Shown here: in pieces, positions 5,823-37,197 of the stretch
Layout: every line of letters begins with the position of its first letter
Position numbering within the stretch: the first letter of the stretch is position 1
Source of the DNA: an uncultured bacterium
GTDB taxonomy: Bacteria; Poribacteria; WGA-4E; WGA-3G
Assembly: GCA_964652195.1 (NCBI GenBank)
Contig: CAZZBB010000060.1
Span: 39,003-103,002 of the forward strand
Length of the DNA: 64,000 bases
Reading direction: 5' to 3'
Program-made: the position numbers and the translations under genes
Notes under the pieces: generated by a model
What the model saw: only the letters and a program-made list of their open reading frames with translations
Told to the model about the DNA's origin: nothing
Databases searched by the model: none

Positions 5823-6151
5823 GTAATGTGTATAATTACGTCAATATTTCACCATAAGTAGAATTTCTTCTCATATCATCTAAATATTCTATATCAATTT
5901 ACTGGAAGTGTGTGCTAAAAAAGTAGCTCTTGGTAATGTTAGTGGTTAGATATAGATATTTTCTTCAATTAATTTTCTTTTTTTATAAAAAAATGTATGA
6001 AATCAGCATTTGGTTAGATATAAACAAAAACAAGTAGTTGACTTTCTTTACAACATGATACCATTTCTAAATATATTTGTGTAACTTCTTGATAATTCCA
6101 CACAGGTTTGATATTATAAAACTCCGAATATTTTGATATAGGTAATAGAGA

Positions 6152-6334
6152 GTGTTTACAATTCAGTCAACTTTGACGGAAGAAGAGAAATGGCAAAATG
6201 AACCTGGTAAGGGTGGATATCCGCTGGACGAACATCGTGATAAAATATCTAATGAACAGTATGAATTAGAATCATTATCAAAAGACATAAAAGCTGCAGT
6301 GCGGCATATTCTACCTAATGGAGGCGAAGCGTGA
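6152..6334 (+). CDS. small hypothetical protein, stop overlaps the SDR start (ATGA)
   Basis: 60 aa ORF. The 4-bp ATGA overlap with the downstream SDR gene suggests translational coupling. Confidence 0.3.
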   Translation: MFTIQSTLTEEEKWQNEPGKGGYPLDEHRDKISNEQYELESLSKDIKAAVRHILPNGGEA

Positions 6335-7080
6335 GTTTAAAAGGACAAGTATGTATTATAACAGGCGGCGGAAGCGGAATTGGACGGGATGCTGCCTTGA
6401 AGATGGCACATCAAGGAGCAACTGTTGTTATCGTCGGCAGAACTGAATCGAAGTTAGAAATAGTAAAATCTGAAGGTAGTAGTGCCAGTGGAACAATAGT
6501 CAGTTATATACTTGATGTAGCTGATTATGAAGCAGTCCAGAAAATGGTGACGGATGTGGTAGAAAAATATGGACGGATTGATGTGCTTGTTAACAACGCA
6601 GGACACAGTTCACACAATCGTCGCATTACCAATGCAACACCAGATGAGGTGCGATCGGTAGTCGATTCAAACCTTATAGGTACGTTTTTCTGTTCTCAAG
6701 CTGTTGTACCTACCATGTTGGAAGCAAAGTCGGGAACAATCATCAATATCTCATCACTGGCAGCGATAACGCCTGGACCACTTGCAGGTTATGCTTATGG
6801 GGCAGCGAAGGCAGGTATTATTAATTTTACAGAGTTTCTTAATAATGATTTAATGAATACAGGTATCAGAGCCAGTGTCATTATTCCGGGTGAAGTCGCA
6901 ACACCGATTTTGGATAATCGACCAAATCCACCGGATGCAGAAGCACGCACAAAAATGGTAGATGTCGCAGAAACAACAGCTGCTATTCTCCTAATTGCCA
7001 CCTTACCCCCCAGAACAAACATACCGAAGTTGACAATCCGTCCAACTGAACATCGTGATATGGTTGAATTGAAAGATTGA
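6331..7080 (+). CDS. SDR family oxidoreductase (short-chain dehydrogenase/reductase)
   Basis: TGGGSGIGRD cofactor motif, NNAG, YGAAKAG catalytic motif. 249 aa. Confidence 0.9.
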   Translation: MSLKGQVCIITGGGSGIGRDAALKMAHQGATVVIVGRTESKLEIVKSEGSSASGTIVSYILDVADYEAVQKMVTDVVEKYGRIDVLVNNAGHSSHNRRITNATPDEVRSVVDSNLIGTFFCSQAVVPTMLEAKSGTIINISSLAAITPGPLAGYAYGAAKAGIINFTEFLNNDLMNTGIRASVIIPGEVATPILDNRPNPPDAEARTKMVDVAETTAAILLIATLPPRTNIPKLTIRPTEHRDMVELKD

Positions 7081-7084
7081 GGAA

Positions 7085-8293
7085 TCACCGGGTATAAATT
7101 GTTGTCTCAGGGTAATAACGTGCCCAAGCGAACCAATAGATGTTCACAGCAGGTATACGTTCTAAATTTTTACCTTTATGTTTGCCTAATGTTGCTTTAC
7201 CTGTAATCAGATTCCATTTTGTATCGGTATTATCTTGAGCGAAATAACCATCCTGGGGTGTAAAAAGTATTACCTTTTTGTCTACGATACGTTTATAAAC
7301 AGCGGTTGCAAATGACTCTTTGTCGTGATAGATTAACAAAGGCACACCGTTAACTGTATCGTTGATGATAGCGGTTTTCGCAAATCGTGAAAGTGGATAG
7401 GCGCGATAGTCCGTGTTATCAGAATCTTTTGGCTGAGTTTGTGTCAGATTATTTTGTATATTGACCTGTCCTCCATCAGCACCGTCTTGTCCATCAGCCC
7501 CATCCTGTCCAGCTGCACCGTCATGTCCAGCTAAGCCATCTTCACCAGCTTGACGTTGCACTTGGACTCCAATAACAAGCTGCTTATTCGGTAGTCTTTT
7601 ATCTGTGTATTTTGTTCCACTTACACCTGTGTCTTGGCTCGTGTGATACCTTTCATACGAATCAAGTCCGATGTCTTCTCGCATCTCGCCTCTATAGAGA
7701 ACAGAAAGCACACTTGTATCGGGAAAATTATCTTGCCATGTTTTCCATGTGATTTGTGGCATTGAGGCGAGTGGTTTTAGTTTTTTGCCTTTCAGTGGAC
7801 CTTGAATAGCTTCGCCAGTAATGTGTGACCAGAGTGACCGTGTTTGATGGTCATACATTAACAGTGCATCTCGCCACAATTTTCCGCTTACGCCGAAAGT
7901 GTAGGTTTTCCCTTCCAGTTCCCGACTATACACGATAGCCGTTTTACAGAGTGGTCACCATGTGGTAGCAATCTTTTTTCCGCCGACAACATCGTTTACA
8001 ATCTCATGTCCATTAAGCAGGTAGAGTGAATATGCGTGACTTTCACCGTTGAAAGTTACACCTATGACCGGTGCATCTGGATCTAATTTTGCTTTGCCAG
8101 CAGGCACGAATTGCGGCTTTGTGATAGCAGGGATGGCATCAAACTTCAGTAAAGTAATGATTGGGTCTTTGTCGTTGTCTGCTGCGGTTACGCTGAGAAC
8201 AAAAGTGAGTAAAAGCGTAAATATAGTGATGTAGTTTTTTAGAGAGGAAAGAATGTCTTTTCGGGATTTGCATGTTGTATTTGTCATTGGCAT
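7085..8293 (-). CDS. DUF3179-like secreted protein with one in-frame TGA (7955-7957) at the first Cys of the conserved CPLC motif. Either a candidate selenoprotein or a nonsense pseudogene.
   Basis: Track ORFs 7955..8383 and 7085..7933 are in the same frame (...KKIATTW-TGA-PLCKTAIVYSRELEGKTYTFGVSG...). Signal/TM at the N-terminus. Collagen-like GxD repeat insert. Confidence 0.5.
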
Positions 8294-8315
8294 CGTTCCT
8301 TTCACTAATATTGTA

Positions 8316-9242
8316 TCATTCGAGAACAAAGTTCTCATATGCAGCATCAAGAACAAGATTGAGTGCATGCAGTTTTTCCACAATTGGACTTAGTTTATTT
8401 TCAGGATCAGACTTGTTCCACTTAAGATATATTAACAGATTATCAAGACAAACATGGGTTATCGTACATACGGTTCTTGTATCCGGTTCGGTAAAAAATA
8501 TGTTCGGATGGAAGTGTCCTTCCTCATCTTGTTTAAGATGATAACCTCCAATATCAAGCCAATCACCGTGGACCTGATGACTTGCAATTTCGAATACATA
8601 GGAATATATAGGATCTATTTCAAATTCTTTCAAAATATCTCGATAATCCTTTCCGTCAACATTCCAAATGGTATTATTCAACATTTTTCTTTTGCTCATT
8701 CCATCCTCTCTAAGCATGGATATAATACGACTTCTCATCACTTCTTTATTCCGGCTTAATGGTTCTTGTTTAGCTCTATTGTTTAGCTCCTGAAGTAATT
8801 CCTTTTCAGGTCTGTAGGCAGCTAAAATAAAACTTTGAAGTGTTTTTTCTTGGGATTCTGATGTAATGAGGTAATTCATTGTTATTACAGTTTTATGTAT
8901 GAGGCTAAAAAAAATGTATGTTAATTCATGTTGATGATTACGAATATGCATTAGCATCCCTTCGTATAGTTTTGTAATCCGAACCATGTGTCCTACAATA
9001 ATTGCCTTGTTTTTGGTATACCCTTTGGTAGCAGTTTCTTCATCTGGTACTGAAGATGCACCTGCTTTGAGTAAGTATAAGCACCGTTTCATAATTTTAA
9101 CAGCGAATTTCATAAATTCGGTATTCGTATCAAAATTCGGTGGTGGTGAATTGAAATCGACCCACTCTTCAACTTTTTTTAGATTTTGAATGATTTCATT
9201 CATATTACTTACTCTTGATTTCCAAAGTAGATTCGTTGGCAA
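8316..9242 (-). CDS. hypothetical protein
   Basis: 308 aa ORF. No recognised domain. Confidence 0.5.
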   Translation of the reverse strand: MPTNLLWKSRVSNMNEIIQNLKKVEEWVDFNSPPPNFDTNTEFMKFAVKIMKRCLYLLKAGASSVPDEETATKGYTKNKAIIVGHMVRITKLYEGMLMHIRNHQHELTYIFFSLIHKTVITMNYLITSESQEKTLQSFILAAYRPEKELLQELNNRAKQEPLSRNKEVMRSRIISMLREDGMSKRKMLNNTIWNVDGKDYRDILKEFEIDPIYSYVFEIASHQVHGDWLDIGGYHLKQDEEGHFHPNIFFTEPDTRTVCTITHVCLDNLLIYLKWNKSDPENKLSPIVEKLHALNLVLDAAYENFVLE

Positions 9243-9354
9243 TGAAAACTTCTAATTTATCCTTTTACATTGTCATCTTTTTCACAGCAACGTTTGGATT
9301 GCTACAAAACATTCGTAAAGAGATATGAGAATGTAGACATTATCTTGAGCGTGG

Positions 9355-9660
9355 TTATTCGCTAATTGGAATTGGTGGTTTTTGCATGGGTTCGTAGTGA
9401 AGGACCATTAGTTGCGGTGCCCGAAACCCGAGGGATTGATAGGTGCGTCCATCTTGGTCACTAAATTCAACTTCATAAGCATTACCGTTTGATAGTATCT
9501 CGACGACTGTACCGACCTGTCCTCGCCACAGACTATGTTCAGGTAGATCATGTGTGAGTGCAACAACATCAAAAAGTTCAATTTTCTCTACATTTCCTTG
9601 CCTTATATAATAATCAGGTAAGTTTCCTATATTTGTAGCATTAAAAAATTTCGATTTCAC
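9355..9660 (-). CDS. DUF4926-like small protein
   Basis: 101 aa. Pattern FDVVALTHDLPEHSLWRGQVGTVVEIL...AYEVEFSDQDGRTY resembles DUF4926. Confidence 0.45.
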   Translation of the reverse strand: MKSKFFNATNIGNLPDYYIRQGNVEKIELFDVVALTHDLPEHSLWRGQVGTVVEILSNGNAYEVEFSDQDGRTYQSLGFRAPQLMVLHYEPMQKPPIPISE

Positions 9661-9778
9661 AGAGTTTCTCCTGTATTTATAATGGGTAAGCAGTTATCAG
9701 TCTTGGTACATCTGAATCTGGTGCAATAATCCAGGCGCTCCGAATTAGTGCTTGTCTGTTCCGCCAAGCAAATAAGAA

Positions 9779-10153
9779 TCAATGAACCCAGCTCCCTCTG
9801 AAATTCCTTATCGCTTTATTTGAGCTGAGTATATCTAACTTACTAACTGCTGGGTATGAATTAGGACCTTGTGCTTTTTGGGTATCAATACTACCCAATT
9901 CCAATTTTGCTGAAGAAAATTCTTTTTGTGTTGTGGAACTCAGGAACGGTAGCATTCTACCTAATAACGGTTCAATACGGGTAATTAACAAAATGTAGGT
10001 CATGATTGATAAACACACCATAACGATTGTCGCGATTTCTACAGACAGTCCGATATATAGCAAAATTGGATAACACCCTATAAGTGGTATAGTTATTAAG
10101 ACTGCACCGATTAGCCAAAGCGTATTTTCTTTAATAGTCTCAATCATCTTCAT
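9779..10153 (-). CDS. small membrane protein (2 TM)
   Basis: 124 aa. Hydrophobic helices LWLIGAVLITIPLIGCYPILLYIGL and IATIVMVCLSIMTYILLI. Confidence 0.4.
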   Translation of the reverse strand: MKMIETIKENTLWLIGAVLITIPLIGCYPILLYIGLSVEIATIVMVCLSIMTYILLITRIEPLLGRMLPFLSSTTQKEFSSAKLELGSIDTQKAQGPNSYPAVSKLDILSSNKAIRNFRGSWVH

Positions 10154-10406
10154 CTCTTAGCTCCTTTTTCAATTCTCGGTAAGTTCGAATCGTTGTTTTT
10201 GCAATAAATCGTAATGCACCTACTATACTTACGACAATTAAAGTCACATAACTGATGTATTCCATAATTTGAGGCCATTTGGCACCGATAGTATAGTTGG
10301 CAAGTTGGGTTAAGCCGTAACCTAACAAAATGTAAACGACAACATATAATGCTTCAAGAACTATAACAAATAGTGAGTTTAGGAAAACGATAAACTTATG
10401 CTTCAA
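10140..10406 (-). CDS. small membrane protein (2 TM)
   Basis: 88 aa. Overlaps the downstream ORF by 14 bp (operon-like). Confidence 0.4.
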   Translation of the reverse strand: MKHKFIVFLNSLFVIVLEALYVVVYILLGYGLTQLANYTIGAKWPQIMEYISYVTLIVVSIVGALRFIAKTTIRTYRELKKELRDEDD

Positions 10407-10433
10407 ATTACTTCTCGGAATTATGGTTATTTA

Positions 10434-10919
10434 TCAGTTTTGAACGTCTTCTCTCTGTATTATGATTCTATCTGGTCCGGATAAAGCTGGAACTGATAAA
10501 GTCTCCCCCTCTTTAAGCTTGTTGGCGATGTATATTATGCTCTTAAAAATATGTTCATTGATCGCATCATTGTCTTTTTCAATGTTTAACGCTTCCGCCA
10601 TTGGCAGCACAAATATCTGAAGGACCTCCTTGAAGATAGCATGTTGACTGTGCGTCAACAGTTCTAATAGTAACATGGATCTATCGATGAGTGTATCGGG
10701 GTCATCTGGAGAAACGGTTTTTTTCTCTGCAATACCACGCAAAATGACATATCCAACGCTCCACCACATCGGCGCCATAAATCTGGATGTCTCTTCAGAT
10801 GCGATTTCTTCAAAGTAGGGTTGACACTGTTCAGCAAGATAATGTTCGAAATCAGCAATGTGTTGTTCTGCCCATTTGATGTTAGCTTTATGCTTTCTGT
10901 TTTGTGACATTTGTTTCAC
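10434..10919 (-). CDS. hypothetical protein
   Basis: 161 aa ORF with no known domain. First gene of a 3-gene minus-strand cluster. Confidence 0.45.
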   Translation of the reverse strand: MKQMSQNRKHKANIKWAEQHIADFEHYLAEQCQPYFEEIASEETSRFMAPMWWSVGYVILRGIAEKKTVSPDDPDTLIDRSMLLLELLTHSQHAIFKEVLQIFVLPMAEALNIEKDNDAINEHIFKSIIYIANKLKEGETLSVPALSGPDRIIIQREDVQN

Positions 10920-11136
10920 TGTATACTGGAATTATCAAAATGGATTTAGGCAGTAGATGTTGTGTAATATTTTCAACGAATGTTTTTACGATTAAGTGTA
11001 GTATAACATACTAAATAGGTTTGTGTCTAATATAGAAAAAGCGAAAATTAAATATGAAATGTGGTTTCACAGTTTATTCCACTCAAATTTACAATGGATA
11101 GGTAGATTTCAATCTTCTATTGTTATTTCCGAAAAA

Positions 11137-17951: not shown

Positions 17952-19319
17952 GTGATTTATGAAAAGGGGGACAGCAGTTATGGTGCTTATGTTCCCGATC
18001 TCCCAGGATGCATCGCTGTAGGTGATACACTGAAAGAAGTCGAAACATTAATTCAAGAAGCTATCGAATTTCATATTGAAGGATTACAAGAGGACGGTGA
18101 CGATGTTCCACAACCCTCTATAAACATCCCTGTTCAGTATGATATTCCATATCTTGGTAAACACAAAGTCATTGAAAACTATGTATATAACGATGATCCT
18201 GCTCTCTTTACTTGTAAGAACTCTGCGGGACAACTCCACCTTGTTGCTGTTGGTAAAAACGATATACAAAAAACCTGGCTCCGTGTTGGAATCTCTAATG
18301 AACGGTTTAATTATATCCGCACTGGTGGATTAGAACTTCGTAGTGCTTTCACCGATGCTGGGTATGGTTCTCTGCTACAGGTAAGAGTACCATACGACGA
18401 TTCTATAGAACCTTCACTGAAGGTCCTCCATCCCAATGAAATCCCTGAGGACCTGCTCCCGCTTCCAGGCGAACGACTCGGACTAAAAACCGAAACACTT
18501 CCTGCACTTAGCAATGCACAAGAAATAGCTTCATCCAGTGCTCGAGAACTTCTGAATTTTGCCTTCAATTTTGGTGGAATTTTCAGAACAGAAGCACCGA
18601 TCGACTCTTTAGGCAATATTCTAACCGGATTACAACAAGTAATTAACAGAATCGGTGCAAAATGTGTTAATTCAACATCTAAAAAGATACCTGAAGACAT
18701 CAAAAGCAGTATGGGGATCTCGCTATTAGAAGTTGGTGCAGGTTCATTTGAGATTCAACTTGCATCGACAGAGTATGTTGGTATATTGAAAGAGTCTGAT
18801 CTTGGAAATGCAATTAATGACTTTCTGAAAATTCTTAATTCTGGATGTAACCAAGACCAACTGAAACCACTCATGGAGCACTTCGGACCAAGAATAGCAA
18901 AGGAATACACTGAGTTTCTCAAACCACTCAGCGAATCCGCAATAGATACCAGATTCACGTGGACATCGCCACATCCTGACCGCGGTGGAACAGCCCAACT
19001 ATCTAAGTCTCAAATGGTAAAAACCATTGATATTCTTGAGAAGATTCAAGAAAAAACATTAAAAACAATAAGAATCCCCGGTACATTAGTTGGTATTTCT
19101 CTCAGATCCAAATCATTTGAGATAGAAACGTCTAATGATAACTATTATGAAAGAGATTTCTTTAAAGGAAAGATCACGGATGAAGTTTTAGAGACTGAAA
19201 TCGTAAAGAACGCTGCAGTAAACAAGCAATATACTGCAGAAATACAAGGTTTCGCTGAAATTGGTGAGACAAAAGATGAAACCAATATTAAGTTCCGACT
19301 ACTTAGTCTCAGTCAGTAA
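17952..19319 (+). CDS. HicB-like antitoxin N-domain fused to a ~400 aa uncharacterised C-terminal domain
   Basis: N-terminus YGAYVPDLPGCIAVGDTLKEVETLIQEAIEFHIEGLQEDGDDVPQP is the HicB/UPF0150 fold. The remaining ~400 aa have no recognised domain. Confidence 0.6.
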   Translation: MIYEKGDSSYGAYVPDLPGCIAVGDTLKEVETLIQEAIEFHIEGLQEDGDDVPQPSINIPVQYDIPYLGKHKVIENYVYNDDPALFTCKNSAGQLHLVAVGKNDIQKTWLRVGISNERFNYIRTGGLELRSAFTDAGYGSLLQVRVPYDDSIEPSLKVLHPNEIPEDLLPLPGERLGLKTETLPALSNAQEIASSSARELLNFAFNFGGIFRTEAPIDSLGNILTGLQQVINRIGAKCVNSTSKKIPEDIKSSMGISLLEVGAGSFEIQLASTEYVGILKESDLGNAINDFLKILNSGCNQDQLKPLMEHFGPRIAKEYTEFLKPLSESAIDTRFTWTSPHPDRGGTAQLSKSQMVKTIDILEKIQEKTLKTIRIPGTLVGISLRSKSFEIETSNDNYYERDFFKGKITDEVLETEIVKNAAVNKQYTAEIQGFAEIGETKDETNIKFRLLSLSQ

Positions 19320-27154: not shown

Positions 27155-29041
27155 TTAGTCATCTGTAGGATTGGTAAGATAAGCAATATCCCACAAAAAA
27201 ATAGTGCCTTCCCAACCACCACTTGCGAGTATACTCCCATCCTCATTAAAAGCAACAGTCTTGATATCATCCTTATGTGCATTGAATGTTTCGATTATTA
27301 CCCCAGATGCAATGTGCAAAATATGTACCTTTCTGTTTCTGGTTGAAATTGCCATTAGCGCACCATTCGGACTGAAGACCATCTCATTGATATCATTTCT
27401 AGACTTATAAAGTTTGGATTTATGCGTACCTGTGTCCACATTCCACAGGTGAATTGTGTTATCATCATGTAAACTTGCAAGGTTTTTTCCATTCGGACTA
27501 AAGGTAATGTGATATACAGATTGTGTCTTTTGCTTGAGTGTATCCATAAGTTCACCAGAAACGGGATCCCATAAATGAATTAACCCGTCAACCGCAGCAC
27601 TTGCAAGTGTTTCCCCATCGGAACTGAAGGCAACACTTAACACCCGAGATGTATGTTCTTTAAGACTATACAACTGATTCCCTGTTTTCGTATTCCACAT
27701 ACGAACAGTACCGTCGGAGTTTCCACTGACAATTACATCTCCATCAGGACTAAAAGCAACACAATAGAGTGATTCCACTGGCACCTTAATTACTTTGATC
27801 TGTTCCCCCGATGTGGTATCCCAGAGACGAAGAGTTGAGTCATTCCCCGCGCTGGCAAGGGTATTGCTATCATTGCTAAAATCAACACCATATACATAAC
27901 TAAATCTATGTCCAGTGAGAGAATTCTTGTTTTTACCTGATGTAACCTCCCAAAGATGGACCTTGTTATCACTATTTCCGCTTGCCATTGTCTTTCCATC
28001 TGGACTAAATGCAAGACTAAAAACGGAACCTATATGTCCAATGTAAGTATGTATGATCTCTCCAGAAGCAGCTCCCCAAATTCGTATTGTTCCATCTTGA
28101 CCTCCACTCGTTATGCTTCTAAAATCTGGACTAAACGCAACATCATTAATATGTGCATCATGTTCTGTGAAAGTCGTTAACTCTTCACCTTTGGCTACAT
28201 CCCACGTACGTATGGTATTATCATAACTTCCACTTGCAAGTATATTTCCATCCATACTGAAGGTGACACTATTGACCCAATGGGAATGACCAGTGAGAGT
28301 GTTCTTTGTTTCTCCAGTGGTTGTGTCCCATAAGCGGATAGTCGTGTCTGAACCACCACTTGCTAAAGTACTTCCATCCGGATTATAGACTACCGAAATA
28401 ACAGAACCGATGTGTCCATCAAGTGTCTGTATATGTTCACCTGATACCCAATCCCAAAGACGAATAGTTCCATCTGTGCTACCGCTTGCAAGTGTAAACG
28501 TATTGGGTTTGAAAGCAATACTTGGAACAAAACCTTTGTGCCCTTTAAGAGTCATCTTTTTTTGACGAGTAGTTAAGTCCCATAAGAAGATTTTTCCCTC
28601 CGTATTGCTGGCTGCGAGAGTGTTTCCATCCGGACTAAAGGCAAGACTTCCAACTTGTAATTTGTGGCCAACGAGTTCTTGTACATGTTCTCCTGTGACA
28701 GCATCCCAAAAATGGATTACCCCCGAACTATCACCACTGGCAAGAATGTTCCCATCTGGATTATAGGCAAGGCAGTCAACTCTACCACGGTGTTTAGTAA
28801 GGAAATGTACTTCTTCATGGGTTCTTGAATTATATATCCATATACCGATAGAGGTTGCTACCGCTAAACGCATGCCATTAGGAGAATATTCCATATCAGT
28901 GATTGTACCTTTCCCTATCCGGGCTATAGCTTTTTCAGGTAAATCCCATTTTGTATATTCTTGGGCATAAGTAATCTGTGTGTATTGAAATATAAAAAAG
29001 AATAACAAGTTTAGTGTTGTAATATTGTATAGTTTTTTCAT
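27155..29041 (-). CDS. WD40 repeat protein (many repeats) with N-terminal signal peptide
   Basis: More than 12 WD40 units (GH...WD). N-terminus MKKLYNITTLNLLFFFIFQYTQITYA. Confidence 0.9.
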   Translation of the reverse strand: MKKLYNITTLNLLFFFIFQYTQITYAQEYTKWDLPEKAIARIGKGTITDMEYSPNGMRLAVATSIGIWIYNSRTHEEVHFLTKHRGRVDCLAYNPDGNILASGDSSGVIHFWDAVTGEHVQELVGHKLQVGSLAFSPDGNTLAASNTEGKIFLWDLTTRQKKMTLKGHKGFVPSIAFKPNTFTLASGSTDGTIRLWDWVSGEHIQTLDGHIGSVISVVYNPDGSTLASGGSDTTIRLWDTTTGETKNTLTGHSHWVNSVTFSMDGNILASGSYDNTIRTWDVAKGEELTTFTEHDAHINDVAFSPDFRSITSGGQDGTIRIWGAASGEIIHTYIGHIGSVFSLAFSPDGKTMASGNSDNKVHLWEVTSGKNKNSLTGHRFSYVYGVDFSNDSNTLASAGNDSTLRLWDTTSGEQIKVIKVPVESLYCVAFSPDGDVIVSGNSDGTVRMWNTKTGNQLYSLKEHTSRVLSVAFSSDGETLASAAVDGLIHLWDPVSGELMDTLKQKTQSVYHITFSPNGKNLASLHDDNTIHLWNVDTGTHKSKLYKSRNDINEMVFSPNGALMAISTRNRKVHILHIASGVIIETFNAHKDDIKTVAFNEDGSILASGGWEGTIFLWDIAYLTNPTDD

Positions 29042-35793: not shown

Positions 35794-37197
35794 TTACACA
35801 TTCTGTCTCGGAGGAGCATATCTTGGATGGAAAGAATCCTCTCCAAATCGTCCATCACCAAGTTTGGCTGCTTGTCCACCTCCTGTTACTGCACATCTGG
35901 CACCATCTAATTCTGGAACAACATACCGCTCAAACCATGCCCCCATCTGTTGCCGCATATCACTAATTAAGGCATGATGAGACTTATCATCTATGAGATT
36001 CTTGCGTTCACGCGGGTCATTCACTAAGTCATACAGTTCATGTGGTCCGTATGCATATCGGTGGACATATTTCCACTCTTGTGTTCGGATCATACGAACG
36101 GGACCATATTCATCAAAAACCACAATTTCATCTTTCGCATCGTTCGTTTCACCCGTTAACGCGGAGACAAAACTTTTCCCTGGTGACATATCATCATTTG
36201 GATCAGGTAATCCCAGATAATCAAGGAGTGTCGGCATAAAATCGTATTGACTCACCATCGCTTCGTTTACATGTCCTTCTGGAATTCTTCCAGGATGGCT
36301 AATCACAAATGGAACTTTAACAGAATTTTCATACATATTTAGTGGAAATGTGCCATTTCCTTTATGCCAAAATCCGTTATGTCCACACGAATAACCGTTA
36401 TCGCTACTGAAGATAATTAGCGTGTTATCCCGAATCCCCAACTCAGTGAGTCTGTCCAATATACGTCCAACATTTAGGTCAAGTGCTGTTATTGCGGCGA
36501 AATAACCTTTGAGTGATTCACGATTACCCATGTGGGCGGCAGCTCCTTGAATTGCCCAAGGGTGTAATGCTTCCTGTGGACAGGTCTTAAAGGGACAATC
36601 GTCATAAGAATCCACAATATCTTGTGGGTGACCTGTAAACGGTGTATGTGGAGCATTATAATTAACACTTAAATAGAATGGTCCTTCACTATTGGCGGAG
36701 ATAAAACCTAACGCATCATCTGTTATGACATCTGTGAGATACCCAGGTTGCATTTCAACTTCTCCATCCCGAATCATATCTGCATCATTATATTTACTTC
36801 CACCAGTGAGTAAAGTAAACCAATGACTAAATCCATGCTGTGGCGTCAAACTATCCCCAAGATGCCATTTACCACTTAACCCGACAGTATAGTTATTATC
36901 GGCAAGTACATCGGAATAACAGGTCAATCCTTCCAAATATCTTGCTGGGTCAGGGGGCATATTTCCATCACGTATCCAGTCGTGTACCCCGTGTGCTGAG
37001 GGAATACGTCCTGTCATGAGACTTGCACGTGCTGGAGAGCATACAGGACTGGTACAGAAGAAATTGGGAAAATACATACCTTCTGATGCTAATTGGTCAA
37101 TATATGGGGTACGCACCTCATCGTTTCCGCTGCAACCCATTGCCCATGGACCTTGATCGTCTGTTAAAACAAAAATGACATTTGGTTGGTTATCCAT
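35794..37197 (-). CDS. sulfatase paralog without signal peptide
   Basis: Same CTSPVCSPARASLMTGR motif and highly similar to its neighbour. Starts MDNQPNVIFVLTDDQGPW. Confidence 0.9.
   Translation of the reverse strand: MDNQPNVIFVLTDDQGPWAMGCSGNDEVRTPYIDQLASEGMYFPNFFCTSPVCSPARASLMTGRIPSAHGVHDWIRDGNMPPDPARYLEGLTCYSDVLADNNYTVGLSGKWHLGDSLTPQHGFSHWFTLLTGGSKYNDADMIRDGEVEMQPGYLTDVITDDALGFISANSEGPFYLSVNYNAPHTPFTGHPQDIVDSYDDCPFKTCPQEALHPWAIQGAAAHMGNRESLKGYFAAITALDLNVGRILDRLTELGIRDNTLIIFSSDNGYSCGHNGFWHKGNGTFPLNMYENSVKVPFVISHPGRIPEGHVNEAMVSQYDFMPTLLDYLGLPDPNDDMSPGKSFVSALTGETNDAKDEIVVFDEYGPVRMIRTQEWKYVHRYAYGPHELYDLVNDPRERKNLIDDKSHHALISDMRQQMGAWFERYVVPELDGARCAVTGGGQAAKLGDGRFGEDSFHPRYAPPRQNV

Follow-up and report, generated by a model that had tools for sequence, protein, structure and literature searches.

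An in-frame UGA in a DUF3179 gene of Candidatus Poribacteria is very probably decoded as selenocysteine

A gene for a DUF3179 protein, carried on a 64-kb stretch of DNA from Candidatus Poribacteria (hereafter the window, meaning the whole 64,000 nucleotides that were analysed), contains a single in-frame UGA at codon 113, and we consider it very probable that this UGA is genuinely decoded as selenocysteine (Sec). The reading draws on the conservation of the UGA, on the pairing of Sec and Cys forms among homologues, on coding constraint on both sides of the UGA and between the UGA and a downstream hairpin, and on the constraint acting on that hairpin. The residual doubt chiefly concerns the Sec machinery, which is known at the phylum level only. 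The gene and its central motif are laid out as follows.

7085..8293, minus strand: complete DUF3179 gene, very probably for a selenoprotein, of 402 codons, with start ATG at 8293-8291, the probable Sec codon at position 113 and the stop TGA at 7087-7085.
7955..7957, minus strand: in-frame TGA, probable selenocysteine codon U113, assigned from TGA conservation and from Cys in homologues.
7946..7957, minus strand: U-P-L-C motif (UxxC), presumed redox or active site, assigned from the translation and the orthologue alignment.

Read on the minus strand from 8293 to 7085, the frame is open across its 402 codons apart from the single internal TGA at 7957-7955, and the peptide around this codon runs ...GGKKIATTW-[TGA]-PLCKTAIVYSRELEGKTYTFGVSGKLW... 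The two open reading frames listed separately at 7955..8383 and 7085..7933 are parts of this one frame, as the preliminary description had held, and the likeness to DUF3179 that it reported is borne out by a Pfam match to DUF3179 (PF11376) with C placed at the internal stop (E=7.4e-77; 259 bits, well above the gathering threshold of 27 bits). A Logan assembly (SRR16090826), whose reads are possibly shared with the window, agrees with positions 5926-10933 over 5008 nt except for one mismatch, and it carries the TGA too. Across the 64-kb window, this is the only plausible gene with an in-frame TGA; a search for a further recurrent gene of this kind, which would be a second candidate selenoprotein gene, found none in the window or in 1.6 Mb of flanking Poribacteria sequence.

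Full-length orthologous frames are present in 80 Poribacteria genomes. Each of these 80 closest genomic loci belongs to a different Candidatus Poribacteria MAG and represents a different species, and closed chromosomes such as OZ242381.1, OZ241980.1 and OY763324.1 carry the orthologue as well; the orthologue sequences are all distinct, with identities of 60-90%, and every one of the 80 species has TGA at the homologous codon, which chance could not plausibly produce. When the window, two further loci (L001 and L002) and one more orthologous locus (L003) are aligned with them, TGA is found in 83 of 84 sequences, L003 alone having TGT. The Cys orthologue encoded at L003 (P0001) reads WCPLCKTAIVYSR at the motif and is syntenic with the window gene, with SDR, PhyH and GFO/IDH/MocA neighbours common to both. 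The same pairing of codons extends to 78 more distant metagenomic homologues, 60 of which have TGA and 18 TGC or TGT at the equivalent of codon 113. That the TGA occupies the place of the first Cys of a CPLC motif was an early observation on the window, and an alignment of eight full-length homologues agrees with it: Cys is invariant at the UGA column, within an invariant W-C-P-L. In two of these eight, Ala stands in for the second Cys of the motif, whereas the first position never holds anything but Cys or Sec; both UPLA and CPLA forms occur among DUF3179 homologues. In the sampled branch of DUF3179, the Sec form is commoner than its Cys counterpart, accounting for 100% of Poribacteria species and 77% of the metagenomic relatives sampled.

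A hairpin lies directly downstream of the UGA, and it is here that a bacterial selenoprotein gene would be expected to carry its decoding signal.

7923..7941, minus strand: candidate SECIS hairpin, assigned from folding, synonymous freezing, covariation and published criteria.

It consists of a 5' arm CGGCUAU (7941-7935), a loop CGUGU (7934-7930) and a 3' arm AUAGUCG (7929-7923), which form 7 bp including one G.U pair. The hairpin starts 13 nt 3' of the UGA and the UGA-to-loop distance is 20 nt. On its own, with -6.8 kcal/mol (z=-2.6), it is the lowest-energy structure of the local sequence, and it is included in the fold of the UGA together with the following 45-57 nt (a 48-60 nt context), which reaches -10.2 to -10.8 kcal/mol. 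Published criteria for bacterial SECIS elements (bSECIS) call for an apical loop of 3-9 nt, an upper stem of 4-16 bp, a UGA-loop spacing of 16-37 nt, a G at loop position 1 or 2 followed by G or U, and an energy of -7.5 kcal/mol or lower. The window hairpin falls within this geometry, with a loop of 5 nt, a stem of 7 bp, a spacing of 20 nt and a loop G followed by U. The energy threshold is reached by the extended fold and by a G-C stem variant (-9.5 kcal/mol) that is found in 48 of the 80 distinct Poribacteria sequences; the window copy is the weaker G.U variant, and its bare hairpin stays above the threshold. The preliminary description had suggested a possible weak SECIS at this spot, to be checked by folding the 60 nt after the UGA. 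The hairpin does exist there and is part of the larger fold, but the energy is borderline, and over 60 nt the folding is matched in stability by shuffled sequence (z=-0.07).

Further evidence comes from how the hairpin evolves. Codons +5 to +9 (ACG GCU AUC GUG UAU) show essentially no synonymous variation in 83 Poribacteria sequences, and nearby four-fold codons vary freely. These five consecutive codons make up five of only seven invariant columns among 208 conserved degenerate columns (permutation p below 1e-5). The sole stem position that commonly varies in Poribacteria toggles between G-C and G.U, and no compensatory stem changes occur within Poribacteria alone because the stem hardly varies there. 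Covariation was therefore addressed by adding metagenomic homologues, namely 59 Sec-type sequences from different lineages. In these, 97.6% of stem cells are paired, compared with 82% after shuffling (none of 500 shuffles reached the observed value) and 24-46% when the partners are slid, and compensatory double changes are seen at four of the seven stem pairs, in 83 cells. Loop nucleotides G25 and U26 (counting the U of UGA as nt 1) are invariant in the 59 Sec-type homologues. Residues +6 and +10 covary across the Sec-type homologues as Ala/Ser, Gly/Ala or Gly/Val, a coupling forced on them because the stem is coding and must also pair. Cys-type homologues retain 3-5 of the seven stem pairs, with the exception of L003, which retains all seven; with its Cys codon and intact hairpin, L003 looks like a recent change from Sec to Cys. 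Judging from the synonymous freezing, the covariation and the contrast with the Cys forms, the hairpin is functional. It is modest in thermodynamics, yet among the most conserved stretches of the gene.

Set against the SECIS of E. coli fdhF, the window hairpin is likewise part of the coding region, shortly after the UGA, and likewise presents a small apical loop with G-U. In the fdhF SECIS, the essential loop G-U lies at nt 23-24 and is bound by SelB; in the window hairpin, the G-U occupies loop positions 2 and 3, which are nt 25-26 on the same count. The window stem, at 7 bp, is shorter than that of fdhF and is without its bulged U or extended lower helix, and there is no sequence similarity between the two. 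No Rfam family matched the window hairpin.

The genetic code of the window appears to be the standard one, and the internal UGA has to be understood in that setting. TGA terminates 8 of the 42 longest non-overlapping open reading frames in the window, the DUF3179 gene included, so the code is standard and UGA is not reassigned genome-wide; the internal UGA therefore needs a local signal. As for the machinery that would respond to such a signal, neither tRNA nor Rfam matches were found in the 64-kb window (ARAGORN, Rfam), ARAGORN found no tRNA(Sec) in 60 related loci, and tblastn with approximate E. coli queries returned no SelA, SelB or SelD homologue in the window or in loci L001-L083. Overall, selA, selB, selD and tRNA(Sec) were not found in the 64-kb window or in the 1.6 Mb of flanks from related genomes. 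Window open reading frames of a length similar to SelA, SelB or SelD were considered and rejected, since they encode a WD40 protein, DnaK, LigA, a sulfatase, an aldehyde dehydrogenase and others. The local absence of Sec genes says little because such genes need not be linked to a selenoprotein gene. At the phylum level, Table S4 of Slaby et al. (2017) lists COG1921 (SelA), COG3276 (SelB) and COG0709 (SelD) for each of the Poribacteria genomes bin70, bin44 and WGA3G, of which bin70 has a GC content of 40%, like the window, and a 2026 study of [NiFeSe] hydrogenases reports Sec-type group 4 hydrogenases in Poribacteria. Sec decoding in the host genome is accordingly an assumption that we take from the phylum-level literature. 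Separately, the large WD40 and sulfatase genes of the window fit Poribacteria; sulfatase genes are in keeping with the phylum, and a published COG table gives very high WD40 counts in Poribacteria genomes.

The UGA could be recoded to an amino acid other than Sec, either to Cys by a SelB-dependent tRNA of the tRNA(ReC) type or to Trp or Cys by near-cognate read-through of UGA-C. UGA followed by C is a leaky termination context, and C always stands 3' of the UGA in these genes. UGA-decoding tRNA(ReC) species that use a SECIS and are present in some MAGs have been described, according to later work that cites Vargas-Rodriguez (2018). We nevertheless regard recoding to another amino acid as highly unlikely. 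The hairpin fits the model of a SelB-type SECIS, the family is catalogued as Sec-containing, and a Cys product could be obtained from a plain TGC or TGT codon without any constrained hairpin. That UGA and SECIS have been kept over the long term in most lineages argues for a benefit specific to Sec.

Public annotation treats the locus differently, as two genes, and the point at which it resumes translation falls inside the candidate SECIS.

7931..7933, minus strand: GTG (Val120), taken as a start by gene callers and located inside the SECIS loop; it yields a 282-aa fragment beginning 'MYSRELEG...'.

More than 100 of the best 120 protein matches cover precisely the C-terminal 70% of the query; all retrieved matches of this type begin 'MYSREL...', at the codon equivalent to GTG 7933. 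Such fragments, without Sec, include two entries to which NCBI gives the name 'DUF3179 domain-containing protein [Candidatus Poribacteria bacterium]'. Taken at face value, this annotation describes a gene that stops at the UGA and a second that restarts at the GTG, giving a 112-aa N-terminal and a 282-aa C-terminal protein; gene callers consistently report the two frames, and an in-frame GTG is indeed available 21 nt downstream. The codons in between behave otherwise. The intervening 21 nt encode P-L-C-K/N/R-T-A-I, as in the continuous Cys homologues, and in 83 Poribacteria sequences both the Pro codon at +1 (CCG 56, CCA 24, CCT 2, CCC 1) and the Cys codon at +3 (TGC 68, TGT 15) vary synonymously only. 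It follows that the stretch from UGA to GTG is translated, with the ribosome reading through the UGA in frame, and the two-gene annotation is thereby excluded on this evidence. In addition, the GTG lies within the conserved hairpin loop, a break at this point would cut the first beta domain in the AlphaFold2 (AF2) model of the Cys orthologue, and a conserved residue of catalytic type would be lost. A split gene is thus extremely unlikely. The practical consequence, which matters for annotation, is that more than 100 public orthologues are truncated, with some 110 residues, the signal peptide and the active-site selenocysteine missing from them.

A nonsense mutation making the gene a pseudogene was the alternative raised at the outset, and its probability is now vanishingly small. 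A recent change of TGC or TGT to TGA in a Cys-type DUF3179 gene would need one base only, and the Poribacteria orthologue at L003 does have TGT; however, the TGA is present in all 80 of 80 species despite a dS of about 1-3 between them, with dN/dS values of about 0.09 for the 78 codons upstream of the UGA and about 0.11 downstream. Values near 0.1 at such divergence indicate that both halves of the gene are maintained as coding. There are no further stops or frameshifts in the gene, distant metagenomic lineages supply the 60 additional TGA forms, and the divergence among the 80 orthologues shows that they are not copies of one contaminant. A sequencing or assembly error at 7955-7957 is of negligible probability, given the same codon in the separate Logan assembly and in 80 further assemblies, which were produced by many projects with a variety of technologies, closed chromosomes included.

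With decoding of the UGA as Sec as the preferred reading, a course of expression can be proposed, its first two steps following the canonical bacterial pathway. As the ribosome arrives at UGA-113, the 7-bp hairpin, with its C-G-U-G-U loop 20 nt on, would form downstream. SelB carrying Sec-tRNA(Sec) would then bind the loop G-U and deliver Sec, beating release factor 2. Reading would continue through P-L-C-K-T-A-I-V-Y-S-R, the hairpin thus also serving as coding sequence, and would end at 7087-7085, at a TGA that lacks a hairpin of this kind. The resulting protein would consist of a signal peptide at its N-terminus and a duplicated pair of all-beta domains, with the U-x-x-C displayed on the first. 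Outside the cytoplasm, this pair would most likely act as a redox centre that alternates between the selenol/thiol and selenenylsulfide states.

The predicted architecture of the protein comprises the following parts.

8180..8293, minus strand: residues 1 to about 38, read from the translation as a predicted signal peptide or membrane anchor.
7700..8074, minus strand: predicted first beta domain, residues 74-198, bearing the UxxC loop, from the AF2 model of P0001 and the BLASTP duplication.
7088..7582, minus strand: predicted second, homologous beta domain, residues 238-402, with a variable insert inside, from AF2 and BLASTP.
7472..7540, minus strand: 18-nt tandem repeat (TRF) that specifies a collagen-like Gly-X-Y insert, AGEDGLAGHDGAAGQDGADGQDGADGG, within a second-domain loop.

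The N-terminus, as read from the translation, has a basic n-region (KSRK), a hydrophobic segment ITIFTLLLTFVLSV and then VTA-A. Distant full-length homologues likewise begin with one hydrophobic segment, and in the AF2 model of P0001 the pLDDT is below 50 at the equivalent residues 1-25. The DUF3179 protein is thus predicted to be exported. The same model, with a pLDDT of 90 and a pTM of 0.87, is nearly all beta. The two halves of the protein are homologous (BLASTP, 29% identity, E=9e-11), with H-D-K-E-S-F standing in the second half where the first has W-U-P-L-C. The Gly-X-Y insert has a weak Pfam Collagen match (E=0.005); it is found in the nearest orthologues and is absent from others such as P0037. 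A sequence search of the PDB with the DUF3179 protein returned no homologue of solved structure. The neighbourhood of the gene, which across the Poribacteria loci has in common only opposite-strand SDR, PhyH and GFO/IDH/MocA genes and an upstream DUF5677 gene, and which in the metagenomic loci has no common neighbour, provided no functional clue in either group.

In the AF2 model, the fold appears distantly Rieske-like, without iron-sulfur ligands. Compared with the Rieske [2Fe-2S] ferredoxin/NirD fold, DUF3179 is without the CxH...CxxH ligands and has its domain duplicated in tandem, and the U-P-L-C loop does not match Rieske box I in a weak hhalign alignment with BphF (1FQT; probability 2%). 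The protein is Rieske-like in fold only and is not a member of the Rieske family. The idea that Sec substitutes for the first ligand of a Rieske cluster was considered on the same grounds (neither CxH nor CxxH ligands, and the 2% hhalign probability) and found unsupported. Thioredoxin-fold UxxC and CxxU selenoproteins (Prx-, Dsb- and Trx-like) offer another comparison: there too U-x-x-C replaces C-x-x-C, and the predicted export is as in Dsb-like proteins. DUF3179 differs from them in being all-beta, as modelled, and in that some homologues do without the second Cys. A CxxC/UxxC oxidoreductase of the thioredoxin fold was rejected, as the modelled protein is all-beta and does not have the beta-alpha-beta-alpha-beta-beta-alpha fold. 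Our best guess is that the U-x-x-C is an extracytoplasmic selenol/thiol redox site on a cluster-less Rieske-like scaffold.

The belief, voiced at the start, that DUF3179 is not an established selenoprotein family is out of date. Reviews from 2022 (PMC9312934) and 2026 (PMC13188914) list DUF3179 as a predicted UxxC/T prokaryotic selenoprotein family and credit it to Zhang and Gladyshev (2007; PMC1976440). The window gene is therefore a new member and not a new family, and it opens no new category, the family having previously been predicted to hold selenoproteins. It has the Pfam domain, Sec position and UxxC/T motif of the catalogued DUF3179 selenoproteins, as well as their Sec/Cys homologue pairs and a SECIS-like hairpin after the UGA. 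It differs from the catalogued family in its occurrence in the sponge-symbiont Candidatus Poribacteria clade, where the Sec form is universal (80/80 species), and in a clade-specific collagen-like insert; this comparison is with the family as the reviews describe it. In the searchable literature, we found neither work on DUF3179 in Poribacteria nor experimental verification of any DUF3179 selenoprotein, such as selenium in the protein.

For the biology of the organism and of the family, the finding has several implications. Among Poribacteria associated with sponges, Sec decoding seems to be fixed. As a bacterial SECIS the locus makes a clean case, with complete synonymous freezing within a phylum and compensatory changes between phyla. 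The gene also points to a probable selenoprotein whose export is predicted; it is common in metagenomes from marine and sediment samples and could be studied by experiment. As a tentative and rather doubtful extension, DUF3179 might represent a widespread class of exported selenoenzymes built from tandem Rieske-like domains minus the cluster, in which the Sec form is dominant and probably ancestral. If this were true, the U-x-x-C (or U-x-x-A) would perform selenium-dependent chemistry outside the cytoplasm without a described counterpart, and the constraint exerted by the SECIS would be strong enough to dictate residues +6 and +10 of the protein.

The SECIS hairpin, whose stem is itself coding, leaves a trace in the DUF3179 protein and in its annotation. 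The following features are relevant here:

7926-7940, (-), coding stem, with codons +6 and +10 relative to the UGA (alignment A4)
7931-7933, (-), GTG within the SECIS apical loop, taken as start by gene callers, giving a 282-aa fragment
7472-7540, (-), 18-nt tandem repeat, 3.2 copies, encoding the collagen-like Gly-X-Y insert AGEDGLAGHDGAAGQDGADGQDGADGG
8316-9242, (-), DUF5677 gene, on the same strand as the DUF3179 gene
L003 6301-6348, site of the Cys-type DUF3179 orthologue (protein P0001), TGT at the Sec codon position

Because the stem is coding and must base-pair, the amino acids at codons +6 and +10 covary. In Poribacteria the pair is Ala(GCU)/Ser(AGC); other lineages have Gly(GGC)/Ala(GCC) or Gly(GGC)/Val(GUC). 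Among the Poribacteria orthologues, L003 alone carries TGT in place of TGA, and its hairpin is complete despite this (7/7 pairs, loop CGUGU); the locus appears to have reverted recently from Sec to Cys while retaining a fossil SECIS. Since gene callers start at the GTG in the SECIS loop, more than 100 orthologues are present in public protein collections as shortened 'MYSRE...' fragments (among P0002-P0120), which lack Sec, the predicted signal peptide and about 110 residues.

The Gly-X-Y insert AGEDGLAGHDGAAGQDGADGQDGADGG is placed in a loop of the protein's second domain. It is found in the closest orthologues but is missing from others, such as P0037, and is therefore a clade-specific insertion of variable length.

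The DUF3179 gene starts 22 nt downstream of the end of the DUF5677 gene, and the two may be co-transcribed. The same gene order is present at the Poribacteria orthologue locus L002, with a weak Pfam match. Three further genes of the window are consistent with the genome of a sponge-symbiont Poribacteria:

17952-19319, (+), HicB-like antitoxin fused to DUF6575
27155-29041, (-), 628-aa protein consisting almost entirely of eukaryote-like WD40 repeats
35794-37197, (-), sulfatase

The metagenome loci L101-L121 form a separate Cys-type DUF3179 clade, 'WCPLANL', in which the second Cys of the motif is replaced by Ala; at 12 of these loci a gene that reads as a family-2 glycosyltransferase-like sequence lies immediately upstream on the same strand. 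U-P-L-A is also seen in some Sec-type DUF3179 sequences. Together, the Ala of this clade and the U-P-L-A motifs indicate that the second Cys is dispensable for the DUF3179 family.
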